Of a stretch of DNA of 20,091 bases, positions 14,858 through 20,091 are shown piece by piece. Every line of letters begins with the position of its first letter. Positions within the stretch are counted from its first letter, which is position 1. Position numbers and translations under genes: made by a program. The notes under the pieces are model-generated. The model did not search any database and was not told the DNA's origin. It was given only the letters and a program-made list of their open reading frames with translations. The DNA comes from a virus (lineage: Duplodnaviria > Heunggongvirae > Uroviricota > Caudoviricetes). The stretch is taken from positions 1 to 20,091 of IMG/VR virus record IMGVR_UViG_2693429524_000017; one strand, 5' to 3'.

Positions 14858-14918
14858 ATTAAATGACATTTGACATAGTTGGATACTTAGCTGCGGCTAT
14901 CAAGATGGAGGTATGTTT

Positions 14919-15362
14919 ATGCTCACTTGTTTTGATGTCGCCGACTACTTCTTGGCGCATTGCGATGAAGAAAGTGGCGACATTATCTCTAACCTAAAAA
15001 TTCAGAAGTTGACGTATTATGCCCAAGGGTTTTCTCTGGTTCTTCTGGGTAAGCCGCTATTTAATGAGAAAATTGAAGCCTGGATGCATGGGCCAGTAGT
15101 TCCTGAATTGTATCGTAAATATAGGGACTGTGGTAACGGCGCTTTACCTGCGCCAGAAAACTTTGACGCTAAAAAATTCAGTGAAGATGAAATTGAATTG
15201 CTGGATGAGGTGTATAAAGTTTATGGTCAGTTTTCTGCCTGGAAACTGCGCAATATGACTCACGAAGAGCAGCCATGGAAAGATGCTTACATTGAGGGTG
15301 CGGTTAGCCAAGAAATCACGCTTGATTCTATGAAAGGTTTTTTCAAAACGTTAATTAACTGA
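14919..15362 (+). CDS. Panacea (DUF4065, COG3600 GepA/SocA-like) domain protein; putative antitoxin or immunity component, about 147 aa
   Basis: Translation contains NLKIQKLTYYAQGFSLVLLGKPLFNEKIEAWMHGPVVPELYRKY, which I recognise as the Panacea core pattern. GGAGG at 14907-14911 favours the ATG at 14919 over the track start at 14913. Stop is 5 nt before the next ORF. Confidence 0.6.
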   Translation: MLTCFDVADYFLAHCDEESGDIISNLKIQKLTYYAQGFSLVLLGKPLFNEKIEAWMHGPVVPELYRKYRDCGNGALPAPENFDAKKFSEDEIELLDEVYKVYGQFSAWKLRNMTHEEQPWKDAYIEGAVSQEITLDSMKGFFKTLIN

Positions 15363-15367
15363 CGTGT

Positions 15368-15790
15368 ATGTCTAGAGTTAAGGGAAGAATAAAACAGAGG
15401 GATAAAGAGAGCTCTGCTACTGTTGGCCTCTCTATCCATCACGAATCTCATGATGTAGACAAAAGTCCGCCTGTATTTTCTCTTAGATACCTACAAAAGG
15501 GGTATTGCCTAGATTGCTGCCAAAAGCATGAAAAGGCAGCATTTGCAGATAGGCTGTTCAGGTTAAGTCAGATGTCATGGGATGAGATACGAAAATCTGA
15601 TAAACACGGGCTTGGGACGGAAAAAATTGCCAGAAACGCGATAAAGGCTCCGATTCCTAAGCATGTTACTCAAGATGTGGATTTCATTGCGTTCAGATTT
15701 TGCTCTAAGGCACCTATGGTTGGTTATAAGATAGGAGCCACTTTTTATGTCTTATGGCTCGACAGGGAGTTCAAGCTATACAAGCACTAA
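15368..15790 (+). CDS. Hypothetical basic protein, 140 aa; candidate toxin/effector partner of the upstream Panacea-domain protein
   Basis: ATG 5 nt after the upstream stop with no independent Shine-Dalgarno, so probably translationally coupled. K/R/H-rich, with a C-terminal segment VDFIAFRFCSKAPMVGYKIGATFYVLWLDREFKLYKH. I cannot assign a family. Followed directly by an intrinsic terminator. Confidence 0.55.
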   Translation: MSRVKGRIKQRDKESSATVGLSIHHESHDVDKSPPVFSLRYLQKGYCLDCCQKHEKAAFADRLFRLSQMSWDEIRKSDKHGLGTEKIARNAIKAPIPKHVTQDVDFIAFRFCSKAPMVGYKIGATFYVLWLDREFKLYKH

Positions 15791-15833: not shown

Positions 15834-16037
15834 TTAACCAAATCGATCCTTAAAGCGCCTATCGCTGTTGCGTCTCTCCATTTTACTGTTGCAGTACGGA
15901 CAAAGATGCTGTTTCTTTCCATCGATAGTCCATGTGAAGTACTTTTTCTTAAATCCAGCACCACAGATATCGCAACTTCTTGGTTTAAACATACTGGCTA
16001 TGAAGATAAGAACAACAAATCCTATGATCCATTCCAT
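15834..16037 (-). CDS. Small membrane-anchored protein with a CxxC...CxxC zinc-ribbon motif, 67 aa
   Basis: N-terminal hydrophobic helix WIIGFVVLIFIASMF, then CDIC...CPYC and a basic tail. AT-rich; ends at the bidirectional terminator. Confidence 0.5.
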   Translation of the reverse strand: MEWIIGFVVLIFIASMFKPRSCDICGAGFKKKYFTWTIDGKKQHLCPYCNSKMERRNSDRRFKDRFG

Positions 16038-16178: not shown

Positions 16179-16364
16179 ATGACCATAGAAGAACGCCTGA
16201 ACAACATTGAGTTGAACCAAACCCTGCTTGACCAGCGACTTTCAGATCTTGAGCTTAAAGATCTTGATGCGCAAATATCAGAAGCAGAAGCCAAGCTCTC
16301 CAGCTTAAACCACCGCAAGAAGCAAATCCGCAACAGAATTACTCAGGGACGCGGAAGCTGTTGA
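16179..16364 (+). CDS. Small coiled-coil hypothetical protein, about 61 aa
   Basis: ATG at 16179 with AAGGAG 5 nt upstream. Heptad-like leucine pattern. Its 3' end overlaps the convergent minus-strand ORF by 26 nt. Confidence 0.45.
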   Translation: MTIEERLNNIELNQTLLDQRLSDLELKDLDAQISEAEAKLSSLNHRKKQIRNRITQGRGSC

Positions 16365-16548
16365 GGTGGGATGCTAGGTCTCTATCGTTAAAATCAAGGC
16401 TGCTAATCATTTCATTGTAAATGGCGTTTTTATCTTCCATTGGCAGTCTTGAGTAAACCAGGCACAGAGCATATTTCAGGGAGTTTAGCTCCTTCTCTAG
16501 CTCTTCCTTGCTTGACGTTGTTGACTTAATAAACTGTTTTTTGTTCAT
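16339..16548 (-). CDS. Small hypothetical protein co-transcribed downstream of mnt, 69 aa
   Basis: ATG overlaps the mnt stop (ATGA on the minus strand), so probably translationally coupled to mnt. No family recognised. Confidence 0.5.
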   Translation of the reverse strand: MNKKQFIKSTTSSKEELEKELNSLKYALCLVYSRLPMEDKNAIYNEMISSLDFNDRDLASHLNSFRVPE

Positions 16549-16796
16549 TTTTCATCCTTACCATACATGGTCTTTAGCGCCTCAACATCGTGTTCAAGAT
16601 CTATCAATCGTGATGCTATAGTTGCAAGGTCTAGTGCTTGAATGTGTTTATTTTTTTCGGTCCACGCTTCAAGTGCCGCGACCATCTCAGCATTTAATGA
16701 ACGAGAATTAGCCTCAGCCAGTTCAATAAGACGTTCCTTTATCTCTACAGGAAGCCTCAGATTCACTTGAGGGTTTTTGTACTTACGATCAGACAT
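16545..16796 (-). CDS. mnt: Mnt-like ribbon-helix-helix repressor, 83 aa
   Basis: N-terminal RHH motif NLRLPVEIKERLIELAEANSRSLNAEMVAAL aligns with my recollection of P22 Mnt; same length; transcribed divergently from arc/ant as in P22 immI. Confidence 0.8.
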   Translation of the reverse strand: MSDRKYKNPQVNLRLPVEIKERLIELAEANSRSLNAEMVAALEAWTEKNKHIQALDLATIASRLIDLEHDVEALKTMYGKDEK

Positions 16797-16824: not shown

Positions 16825-16853
16825 AGGATATGTAGGTATCTATTGACTATCAA
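16825..16853 (-). promoter_or_regulatory. Pmnt-like promoter (minus strand: -35 TTGATA, 17-bp spacer, -10 TATCCT)
   Basis: The -35 is the reverse complement of 16848-16853 and the -10 of 16825-16830. An AGGA Shine-Dalgarno lies 7 nt before the mnt ATG. Overlaps Pant back-to-back. Confidence 0.5.
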
Positions 16854-16871
16854 TGCGTACCTAAATACTAT
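16843..16871 (+). promoter_or_regulatory. Pant-like promoter (-35 TTGACT, 17-bp spacer, -10 TACTAT) driving arc, ORF67 and ant
   Basis: TTGACT at 16843-16848 and TACTAT at 16866-16871; GGAGGA RBS at 16893-16898 before the arc ATG. Confidence 0.6.
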
Positions 16872-16889
16872 GTATGCGTACCACATACA
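16871..16889. promoter_or_regulatory. Operator-like palindrome TGTATG-N7-CATACA over the Pant -10/start region (candidate Mnt- or Arc-type operator)
   Basis: Inverted 6-bp arms at 16871-16876 and 16884-16889. In P22 the Mnt operator overlaps the Pant start point. Which repressor binds here is not determined. Confidence 0.4.
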
Positions 16890-16901: not shown

Positions 16902-17042
16902 ATGAAGGTAAAAACACTGCGTATGCCAGAGAAGCTAGAAAAAATTCTTGAAGAAAAAGCAAAGGAAGAGTGTCGCTCATTCAGCGCAGAAGTAATTAAA
17001 CGGGTGATGGACAGCCTGAAGAGAGAGGGGATAACTGTATGA
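16902..17042 (+). CDS. arc: Arc-like ribbon-helix-helix repressor, 46 aa (absent from the ORF track because it is under 60 aa)
   Basis: ATG at 16902 with GGAGGA upstream. Translation MKVKTLRMPEKLEKILEEKAKEECRSFSAEVIKRVMDSLKREGITV aligns with P22 Arc as I recall it, notably RSFSAEVIKRVMDSLKREG against RSVNSEIYQRVMESFKKEG. Confidence 0.8.
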   Translation: MKVKTLRMPEKLEKILEEKAKEECRSFSAEVIKRVMDSLKREGITV

Positions 17043-17242
17043 GTAAAGAATGTTGTTTCTGCGGCATTAGCGAATCAGACGCTGATCAAACATACATTTA
17101 CTCTAAAGAAACAGGTCGGATGCTGTGTAGTGACTGCGTGTTGGACATCATAAGATACAAGCATCTTGGATGTTCTGCCAGCATTAGCAATATAGGTGAA
17201 GTATATGAAGGGAAAGATATAACTGATAGAGCAGAAAGTTGA
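17039..17242 (+). CDS. Small Cys-rich (zinc-ribbon-like) hypothetical protein, 67 aa, translationally coupled to arc
   Basis: ATG overlaps the arc TGA (ATGA). Cys cluster CCFCG...CSDC...C. Sits between arc and ant, where I recall P22 having only an intercistronic region. Confidence 0.55.
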   Translation: MSKECCFCGISESDADQTYIYSKETGRMLCSDCVLDIIRYKHLGCSASISNIGEVYEGKDITDRAES

Positions 17243-17340
17243 AGCCCCAACTGCTGGAACAGTCAGGGCTTCGGTATCGTAAAACCACACATAGGAATTA
17301 ACGACATGAAAAGTATAGCAACAGCAGTATCTACTATCAA
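17236..17340 (-). ncRNA. sar: Candidate sar-like antisense RNA locus: minus-strand promoter inside the ant 5' end, transcript running antisense across the ant RBS to a hairpin at 17241-17272
   Basis: Minus-strand -35 TTGATA (reverse complement of 17335-17340), 17-bp spacer, -10 TATACT (reverse complement of 17312-17317), placing the start near the ant ATG. An extended hairpin GAAGCCC..ACTG-CTGGAA-CAGT..GGGCTTC lies at 17241-17272. The predicted length of about 65-70 nt is similar to the P22 sar RNA as I recall it. The span includes the promoter. Confidence 0.45.
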
Positions 17341-18172
17341 TGTACCATTCCACGGCGCAGAGCTTTATGTTGTCAATCACAACGGCGAACCGTATACCCC
17401 AATGAAACCTATCGTTGAAGGCATGGGTATGGATTGGGCTTCACAGTTTACGAAAATGAAGCAGCGGTTTAAAACCTCCATTGTGAAAATCACAATGCAG
17501 CTTCCTGGTGATGAACAACGCCGTGAGATTATTTGTTTGGCACTTCGCAAACTTGCAGGTTGGCTGCAAACCATTAGCCCTAACAAAGTCCGCCCTGAAA
17601 TCCGCGACAAGGTAATCCAGTATCAGGAAGAGTGTGACGATGTGCTCTACGAATACTGGACTAAAGGTCATGTAGTTAACCCACGCAAAGCTAAAAAGGC
17701 GTTGCCGGGTAAAATTACCACTGAACAGCAGGAAGCCATTAAACAACTCGTCATGAGTCGCGGTCAGTCTCTGCCAAAAGAAAAACAGGCGAAGGCGATG
17801 ATCACCATGTGGTCGTCACTGAAATCTCATTTTGGGTGTTCATACAAAGAAATCAGCGATGAGCAGTTTACCGAAGCTCTGTCACTTGCAGCTCGTATTC
17901 CACTTGAAGGCGAGTTCATTGGCAAGTCGAAACATAATGAGATGAGTTGTTTTGATTGGAGGATGAATGTTCATAACCTGAACTCGGCGTGCATTCATCT
18001 TGATGCCATGTACAGAATATGGAGAGACGAAATGGAACCCGCTTTGCGATTGCTTGGCTCTCCGGTTGCGACCAGATTTTGCGGAAGAATTGCAGATTGC
18101 TATTCCGTAACTGCAAGCGTTAAGAAAAGTCTGGAGAATGCCGCAGGGCTGAAAGGCTTACAACCATTTTAA
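17306..18172 (+). CDS. ant: Antirepressor Ant (P22 Ant-like), 288 aa
   Basis: N-terminal segment YTPMKPIVEGMGMDWASQFTKMKQRF...ICLALRKLAGWL...YQEECDDVLYEYWTKG is typical of phage antirepressor N-domains; located after arc as in P22 immI. Confidence 0.8.
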   Translation: MKSIATAVSTINVPFHGAELYVVNHNGEPYTPMKPIVEGMGMDWASQFTKMKQRFKTSIVKITMQLPGDEQRREIICLALRKLAGWLQTISPNKVRPEIRDKVIQYQEECDDVLYEYWTKGHVVNPRKAKKALPGKITTEQQEAIKQLVMSRGQSLPKEKQAKAMITMWSSLKSHFGCSYKEISDEQFTEALSLAARIPLEGEFIGKSKHNEMSCFDWRMNVHNLNSACIHLDAMYRIWRDEMEPALRLLGSPVATRFCGRIADCYSVTASVKKSLENAAGLKGLQPF

Positions 18173-18212
18173 CTACCTGCACGAAAAGTGCAGGTCAATC
18201 ATCAACGCAACG

Positions 18213-18236
18213 ACCCAGCTTCGGCTGGGTTTTTTT
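18213..18236 (+). terminator. Rho-independent terminator after ant
   Basis: ACCCAGC-TTCG-GCTGGGT hairpin followed by a T-run (18231-18236). Confidence 0.75.
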
Positions 18237-18294: not shown

Positions 18295-20091
18295 ATGACA
18301 GACATTACAGCCAATGTTGTAGTGAGCATGCCTTCGCAACTCTTCACTATGGCGCGTTCTTTTAAAGCGGTTGCCAATGGCAAAATTTATATTGGTAAAA
18401 TTGACACTGACCCTGTAAATCCTGAAAACCAGATTCAGGTTTATGTGGAGAACGAAGATGGTTCTCACGTCCCTGTTTCGCAACCAATCACCATTAACGC
18501 TGCTGGTTATCCGGTATATAACGGACAGATTGCCAAGTTCGTAACTGTACAGAATCACTCCATGGCTGTTTATGATGCATATGGTGCACAACAATTCTAT
18601 TATCCTGATCTACTTAAATATTCTCCAGACCAGTTAAGGGCTGAGCTTTCTGGCCCTGATGGCGCATCTCTGGTTGGTTATGGAGGCACAACCGTAAAGA
18701 TTGAGCTGGAGATCTTGAAAGCTACACATGATTCATTAATTGATAAAACAGGATTTAACGCTATTGGCCGCTTTCTCAATCTTTCAGAGCTTCGCTCCTG
18801 TGTTCCAGAGGAGGCAGGGCAGATTGTATACGTAGCATCAGCAGCTAGCACTACACATGCTGAAAACCACCTTGGTGGCGGCTTTTTCGAGTCTGTTGAT
18901 AACATTCAGGCGTGGGCTGATGATGGTGGAATTGTAATCAAGCCAGAAACTGGAACGATGGTATGGAGACGAATTAATTTTACCACTTACGACATGCAAT
19001 TTTGGGGGGTGAAACCTGACGGAGTCACAGATAACGCAACAGCTATAACTCTTGCAACTAACTTTGCCCGCTCAAACAAATGCATTCTAGAGGCTCCTGC
19101 TGGAAACATAAATACATCAAAAACAATCCCAATTTATGACAATATGGGAATTAGAGGACAGGGAAAGGCTGAAGCGACAGTTTTTTATAAAACAACAAAT
19201 GACAAAATAGATCTCACAAAAAATGGAGAAGTAATTCTTCAGGTGGATGCATTATGTGCTTTTATACCAAAACAATGGGATCTAACAGATAACTCAATGA
19301 GTTCATTTTGTGTTAACGGTAGAGTTGAAAACTGCATGTTTAGAAGGCTTGGCTTAACACAAGAAAATGTAGATTCTTATAGAAATTATTACGGACTGTT
19401 TTTAGGAAAATCAGCAGCACCAGTTATCAGACAGTCAATTTTTGAATGTGCTTATATCGGATGCTTCTCTTATGCGCCGTTCTCTGGCGTAATGGAAATG
19501 GTCGGTTTCCCACAATATCCAGGGAAAGGATATGCTGGAGTTTTATTTGAAGATTTTAGGGATGGTCAAATAAAAGTAATAGGCACTTCTATGGATATGC
19601 GCCTTGTTCAGGTTAACGGTTACCAGTTGTCATTTAGAATGTCAGGAATGCAATATACCACCATGACCAATTGTACTGCTGAAAACTGCACGCCAATGGA
19701 TGGGGAGTCAATTTGCTATGCATTTGATTTTGTAAATCCGTATTGCATTGTCATGAATACTTGTGCAACAGAATTTGTTAAGGGTGGGCAACTTCGTGTT
19801 AGCGTTCAGGGAAACCCATCATTCAGACCATCTATTATTGTCAATGGCTTTCTGCCAATTGATCAACAAAGCCCGGTAGTGCAAACACCTATAATAGATA
19901 TTGATAATGGTGGCGTAGTTGAAATGAGTGTCATATTAAATGGTGGAGATTGGGCTATAAATCCATCTGCTACAAATTTAGCCGTACCAAGAGCAAGCGG
20001 AAATGGGTTGAAAGCAAGGTTAATAGGTGTAAACGGGTCGCCTGTTTCGATCTGGAGCGTGTCTCCTGGCGCAGATGTGAAGGAGTTCTAA
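18295..20091 (+). CDS. Tailspike protein (P22 gp9-family N-terminal head-binding domain fused to a divergent receptor-binding domain), 598 aa
   Basis: N-terminus [50 protein letters not shown] matches the conserved P22/Sf6/HK620 particle-binding domain. The remainder is a different, AT-richer domain. GGAG RBS; the TAA is the last codon of the window. Confidence 0.85.

Follow-up and report, generated by a model that had tools for sequence, protein, structure and literature searches.

A sar-type antisense RNA element opposite the ant leader in the immI region of a P22-like phage

The sar RNA has been a textbook cis-antisense regulator since 1987. The primary work on sar of phage P22 is that of Liao et al. 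1987, Wu et al. 1987 and Schaefer & McClure 1997, as cited in PMC2629481. The P22 RNA, of 68/69 nt, pairs with ant mRNA and blocks translation initiation (PMC12197685; PMC7968456; PMC2629481), and it keeps the antirepressor at the low level that lysogeny needs (PMC12197685; PMC7968456). It is listed as trans-acting in a review table (PMC12197685), and small-RNA sequencing during infection gave reads over its locus (PMC13397905). In the annotated P22 region (BK000583), sar occupies 15021–15090 on the complement, with its terminator at 15021–15058, Psar at 15097–15125, the ant ATG at 15091 and the end of arc at 15022. The immI region, or 'ant moron', in which these genes lie has been described for both P22 and epsilon34 (PMC2629481).

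The sequence analysed here, referred to as the window, is a stretch of 20,091 nt from a P22-like phage or prophage of the genus Lederbergvirus and represents its late-gene half. By megablast it showed 94–97 % identity, over 44–60 % of the window, to the Escherichia phages JEP4, EC.P3, E212, CUS-3 and Kapi1, with matches spanning the terminase, portal, coat, DNA-stabilisation and ejection-protein genes. The layout opposite ant was found to be the same as in P22. In both, the −10 element reaches to 6 nt inside ant, and the RNA, annotated in P22 and predicted in the window, begins at position −1 and has its 3′ end directly at the stop codon of the preceding gene. The window and P22 also share an extended −10 (TGCTATACT), a two-hairpin architecture and a position antisense to the ant leader in immI. 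The layout of the annotated epsilon34 sar is identical to that of the window.

Identity and structure of the sar element

A sequence-only reading of the window had proposed a P22 sar-type antisense RNA across the ant ribosome-binding site. This proposal was supported by a match to the Rfam sar family, by the P22 geometry, by the homology of Ant and by the presence of Arc, Mnt and facing promoters upstream. The features of the locus are as follows.

17237–17305, minus strand: predicted sar RNA of about 69 nt, 5′ GUCGUUAAUUCCUAUGUGUGGUUUUACGAUACCGAAGCCCUGACUGUUCCAGCAGUUGGGGCUUCAACU 3′, ends uncertain by about 1 nt
17276–17305, minus strand: 5′ stem-loop of sar, with stem GUCGU.AA / UU.ACGAU in the minimum-energy fold
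17241–17272, minus strand: 3′ terminator hairpin of sar, 14 bp with the 4-nt loop UCCA, then the tail AACUUUCU
17312–17340, minus strand: Psar promoter, −35 TTGATA at 17340–17335, 17-nt spacer, −10 TATACT at 17317–17312
17243–17308, plus strand: sar target, the orf67–ant intercistronic leader of the ant mRNA, read from the sequence
17306–18172, plus strand: ant, antirepressor gene, 288 aa (Pfam P22_AR_N, E=4.9e-45)

In a covariance-model search of the window against Rfam, sar (RF00262) was the only family to reach its own threshold. The match lay on the minus strand at 17304–17237, covered model positions 1–68 of 68 and scored 80.9 bits (E=7.3e-16), almost twice the gathering score of 43, while the plus strand at the same locus scored only 16.5 bits. 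The same model gave 97.8 bits for the annotated sar of P22, 95.6 bits for that of epsilon34 and 84.6 bits for the CUS-3 copy. A chance origin of the element is excluded by this full-length homology. Weaker Rfam matches were rejected as sub-threshold, namely ctRNA_pGA1 on the same hairpin (25.4 bits, gathering score 45) and a number of snoRNA and miRNA models. The element is very probably the sar gene of a P22-like temperate phage, an identity based on homology in sequence and structure, on where the promoter lies, on the fold and its strand specificity, on covariation and on the surrounding genes. The sar family is already known, and the window copy is recognised by the standard curated model. 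Production of the RNA, its exact ends and translational repression are predicted by analogy with P22.

The ends of the RNA were set by homology with the annotated sar RNAs of P22 and epsilon34. A start at the ant ATG had been predicted in the sequence-only reading, and this was correct to within one base, with P22 homology placing the start at G17305, the base before the ATG. The same reading had the RNA lying across the ant translation start. The Shine–Dalgarno sequence (AGGAA, 17293–17297) is indeed within the RNA, but the start codon (ATG, 17306–17308) is outside it and is only abutted by the RNA. Relative to ant, the RNA spans −1 to about −69, and its complementarity to the leader is complete by construction.

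The 69-nt RNA (17305 to 17237) folded at −29.9 kcal/mol, compared with −14.5±2.9 kcal/mol in 200 shuffles, none of which was as stable (z=−5.3). The minimum-energy fold was the same as the centroid fold and consisted of two hairpins. In the loop of the 5′ stem-loop is UUCCU, which is complementary to the ant Shine–Dalgarno sequence. The long hairpin that had been noticed at 17241–17272 is real and has 14 uninterrupted pairs on the minus strand. Its stability is −22.0 kcal/mol on this strand versus −16.0 kcal/mol on the plus strand, a difference of 6 kcal/mol. The plus-strand version is weaker because three G-U pairs turn into C-A mismatches, leaving 7+4 pairs with internal loops. The 3′ hairpin is therefore perfect only on the minus strand, which indicates that the structure was selected on the minus-strand transcript.

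The sar hairpin was absent from the output of a simple intrinsic-terminator scan of the window, as its tail (AACUUUCU) has fewer than five T in eight bases and only three consecutive U. The placing of the 3′ end consequently rests on the P22 analogy, and this end is the weakest point of the model. In the annotated P22 sar terminator the tail (AACUUUAC; AACTTTAC) is equally U-poor as judged by sequence, the scan itself covering the window only, and for this reason the terminator rule was not counted against the sar call.

The near-consensus minus-strand promoter that the earlier reading had placed in the first codons of ant (TTGATA-17-TATACT) was present, with 10 of 12 matches to consensus. It lies within ant codons 3–12 and is the top sigma-70-like site of the 20-kb window and the sole site with a TG (extended −10 TGc-TATACT, TG at 17320–17319). 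It stands at the same distance from the ant ATG as Psar does in the P22 annotation (BK000583). The window contained 20 sigma-70-like sites versus 25.9±5.3 in shuffled sequences. Since this class of site is not enriched, the Psar match alone proves nothing and the promoter call depends on conservation.

Conservation and variation across related loci

IMG/VR was scanned with one arm of the hairpin as an exact 15-mer. This gave 120 hits, some of which were chance matches in unrelated sequence that were removed by requiring the second arm, and 102 loci were retained. These loci held 59 distinct sar sequences with 35 distinct 5′ domains. In a separate alignment of ten phages, no variation was seen in TTGCTA, which comprises the TG and the first −10 bases, in TCATGT at the start of ant, or over most of the two hairpin arms. 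The rest of the −10 differed only in SPN3UB (TACAAT), and the 5′ domain varied between lineages.

The 102 related loci yielded 29 distinct promoter stretches. A TAnnnT −10 hexamer was found at a constant position, 3 nt from the complement of the ant start codon, in all 29 variants, and the TG was at its standard offset in 25. The −35 was variable, with between two and five matches to consensus, and the best of the 29 was the TTGATA of the window and CUS-3 type (5/6). Given this −35, the window-type Psar may depend less on the extended −10, and the near-consensus hexamer could make the window copy convenient for experimental work. In the −10 hexamer, the invariant A and T coincide with positions 1 and 2 of the codons Ser (AGT) and Ile (ATA), which specify Ant residues 3–4. 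With its key bases at first and second codon positions, the hexamer does not permit a silent −10 knock-down.

These data bear on the reading that the hairpin is a plus-strand terminator, attenuator, processing site or recombination joint and that the minus-strand promoter is a chance match in ant. The position of the hairpin exactly at the end of orf67, at a mosaic joint between gene cassettes, would be compatible with such a role, as would the lack of enrichment of promoter-like matches in the window. However, on the plus strand the hairpin contains C-A mismatches, is weaker by 6 kcal/mol and lacks a U run in the sequence after it (GGUAUCGUAAAACC), and RF00262 reaches just 16.5 bits there. 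A chance promoter is also difficult to reconcile with a −10 hexamer and TG that hold their position across the 29 variants despite differing Ant residues. Furthermore, the P22 record (BK000583) annotates the element as an antisense transcript, and small-RNA reads lie over it (PMC13397905). A plus-strand element with a fortuitous promoter is thus extremely unlikely.

The 5′ domain was compared at the level of pairing. When 35 sar variants were aligned with MAFFT, the 68-nt and 69-nt classes had their 5′ stems one column out of register. This register was unsuitable for column-wise pair counting, so each 5′ domain was folded separately and the stems were tabulated. A hairpin starting at nt 1 was present in 35 of the 35 5′ domains, compared with 3.3 of 35 expected from shuffles of these domains, and an anti-Shine–Dalgarno sequence was located in or beside the loop in every one. 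The 5′ hairpin occurred as 13 stem variants with compensatory changes at stem positions 3–5. Position 4 was occupied by G-C, G-U, A-U or U-A pairs, and position 5 by U-A, G-C, A-U or U-G pairs. This shows that the 5′ stem is retained through genuine compensatory change. Covariation of the 3′ hairpin cannot be tested with the 102-locus set because the loci were picked by an exact match to a hairpin arm. Variant 3′ hairpins that still pair were limited to those of TL-2011b and SPN3UB, both of which were found by BLAST.

An alternative is that Psar is real but acts mainly in cis, with convergent polymerases colliding or occluding each other, or with the open complex blocking elongation into ant, the RNA being a by-product. 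Psar is oriented head-on to transcription from Pant, about 470 bp away, and from the late operon, and its occupancy could be high since the window copy is unusually good (5/6 −35 plus extended −10). However, a compensatory 5′ stem in 13 variants and an anti-Shine–Dalgarno sequence in or by the loop would be unexpected if the RNA were irrelevant, and the P22 RNA is listed as trans-acting, blocking initiation by pairing with ant mRNA (PMC12197685). This cis-only action is considered very unlikely, and an RNA that acts by pairing with the ant leader is preferred.

The two hairpins differed in their patterns of variation. Across the comparative set, the 5′ hairpin has evolved together with the ant leader that it opposes, while the terminator hairpin is fixed and marks a mosaic joint. 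The 102 loci comprised 17 ant-side types and 34 upstream-gene types in 47 combinations, including 10 quartets with all four combinations. The nucleotide sequence of the 32-nt hairpin hardly varies, even among phages with only about 40 % identity in their Arc and Ant proteins. A role as a mosaic joint fits the modular exchange long described for P22-like phages. We tentatively suggest, as a possibility that is rather doubtful at present, that the 32-nt hairpin is also a fixed recombination 'linker' for P22-like phages and that its invariance is partly maintained by or for exchange. If so, recombination within the hairpin would join ant/sar alleles to different upstream cassettes (arc, orf67 and others), with each ant keeping its matching sar 5′ domain, so that regulation would never be broken.

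The sar hairpin pattern (GAAGCCCTGACTGTTNNNGCAGTTGGGGCTTC) was also observed among representative genomes in Pectobacterium brasiliense, Tatumella terrea, Entomohabitans teleogrylli and Lonsdalea quercina. As these are four Enterobacterales outside E. coli and Salmonella, the family reaches beyond the phages of Salmonella and Escherichia.

Genes of the immI region and the CUS-3 type

The region containing the element, towards the right end of the window, is a complete P22-type immI with mnt, facing Pant/Pmnt promoters, arc and ant. Upstream of ant, it comprises the following features.

16545–16796, minus strand: mnt-like ribbon-helix-helix repressor gene, 83 aa (Pfam Arc-like domain, E=3e-10)
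16825–16871, no single strand: facing, overlapping Pant/Pmnt promoter candidates, laid out as in the annotated P22 region
16902–17042, plus strand: arc, first gene of the Pant operon, 46 aa (Pfam Arc, E=3e-9)
17039–17242, plus strand: orf67, small CxxC...CxxC gene of 67 codons between arc and ant (full-length match to phrog_7150, E=3e-50)

The product of ant matched PHROG 524 'anti-repressor Ant' (E=5e-76) and has 41 % amino-acid identity to P22 Ant, and Arc has 38 % identity to its P22 counterpart. The mnt-like gene has the position and orientation of P22 mnt. The Pant candidate is on the plus strand at 16843–16871 (TTGACT-17-TACTAT) and the Pmnt candidate on the minus strand at 16853–16825 (TTGATA-17-TATCCT). 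Operator-like repeats are present at these promoters as an 18-nt imperfect inverted repeat (16829–16846 / 16850–16867). The same area also holds a 21-nt direct repeat (16836–16877), and ATGCGTACC occurs in it twice, 21 bp apart (16853 and 16874).

The gene directly upstream of sar and ant is orf67 and not arc. Its ATG overlaps the arc stop codon as ATGA, and its last two codons and stop (TGA, 17240–17242) overlap the 3′ end of sar. PHROG 7150 carries a function-unknown label and no Pfam family was matched by orf67; identification as a ClpX-like zinc finger was rejected, with no such Pfam match even at E=10. Among the related loci that were fetched, orf67 was found in 13. The copies differ by at most two bases, too few differences for an estimate in the dN/dS analysis that was attempted. 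One further locus (L054) holds an orf67 homologue with 37 % identity.

The same arc–orf67–sar–ant arrangement is found in the E. coli K1 phage CUS-3 (CP000711) and related E. coli prophages. CUS-3 and the window are 98 % identical over 17200–17345, and their RNAs differ by two loop substitutions, with U17289 of the window being C in CUS-3 and the terminator-loop A also being C. In the CUS-3 record this stretch is labelled only as 'bsq2; boundary sequence', with arc, orf67 and sar unannotated, and the PGAP annotation of E. coli E50 is without sar and without orf67. The CUS-3-type immI of E. coli prophages thus carries an intact sar, arc and a Cys-rich orf67 that are unlabelled in public records. 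The significance of the element extends little beyond correct annotation.

An identical copy of the window sar variant was not found in the phage, E. coli or representative-genome collections, the last of which was scanned by exact match. This would be compatible with a sar that has decayed in a defective prophage and lost its function, still recognisable by homology but neither expressed nor required any more. However, the promoter, both hairpins, the Shine–Dalgarno complement, full-length ant, arc, mnt, the late operon and the tailspike are all intact, and the two differences from the RNA of CUS-3, an inducible phage, are both in hairpin loops. The probability of decay is considered negligible, and the window copy is treated here as an intact sar.

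Several other features were observed around immI. A Panacea (SocA-like antitoxin) domain protein is encoded at 14913–15362 on the plus strand (E=2e-24), and an ORF of 140 codons without a Pfam match (15368–15790, plus strand) starts 5 bp past it. These two genes may be a toxin–antitoxin or defence pair in the 'ant moron'. Downstream of mnt are two small leftward ORFs: one of 69 codons (16339–16548, minus strand) that matched PHROG 16466, of unknown function, and one of 67 codons (15834–16037, minus strand) with a CxxC...CxxC arrangement and a weak zinc-ribbon match (E=0.007). In CUS-3 this position is taken by a second mnt-like gene. On the other side of immI, ant and the tailspike gene are separated by a strong intrinsic terminator (18212–18231, plus strand) that consists of an 8-bp stem and a T run after it. 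The tailspike gene (18295–20091, plus strand) encodes the conserved P22 head-binding domain in residues 1–113. Its similarity to related phages ends near 18600–18640, which is the usual tailspike mosaic boundary, and the remainder is a pectate-lyase-like receptor-binding part.

Proposed action and comparison with known antisense RNAs

Translation of ant is the predicted target of sar repression. In the proposed mechanism, which is modelled on P22, host sigma-70 RNA polymerase would start at Psar, using the extended −10 promoter within the first ant codons, and would transcribe leftward from G17305 for about 69 nt before stopping at the 14-bp hairpin (17272–17241). The resulting RNA would be complementary to the ant leader from −1, through the Shine–Dalgarno AGGAA, to the stop codon of the upstream gene, and would display the anti-Shine–Dalgarno UUCCU in the loop of its 5′ hairpin. 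Pairing with ant mRNA, whether from Pant or from late-operon read-through, would block 30S binding and lower the amount of Ant. sar would in this way add a post-transcriptional layer to Mnt and Arc, which would prevent untimely inactivation of the prophage repressor by Ant.

The window element differs from P22 sar in detail. The 3′ hairpins are identical except for two loop bases. The 5′ stem is GUCGU/ACGAU with the loop UUCCU in the window, compared with GUUGGU/ACUGAC and the loop UCUCC in P22, a difference that tracks the divergent ant leader. There is one extra 5′ nucleotide in the window sar, and the lengths are equal within one nucleotide. The −35 of the window (TTGATA, 5/6) is closer to consensus than that of P22 (GTGTTA, 3/6), and the sar terminator coincides with the end of orf67 (phrog_7150) in the window but with that of arc in P22.

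Other small RNAs provide parallels of function or design. The c4 RNA of phages P1/P7 is released by processing of the transcript that also carries its target, with which it pairs via short loop sequences, whereas sar is a fully complementary convergent transcript. Like sar, c4 blocks the ribosome-binding region of an ant message and protects lysogeny (PMC12197685), but the two have no relationship in sequence or structure. The targets are the 3′ end of cII for OOP RNA of lambdoid phages and the transposase start for RNA-OUT of IS10, and these RNAs belong to different families that are not homologous to sar. The design that they share with sar is that of a short, highly structured, convergent cis-antisense RNA with its own promoter and terminator hairpin, acting post-transcriptionally (PMC12197685, PMC7968456).
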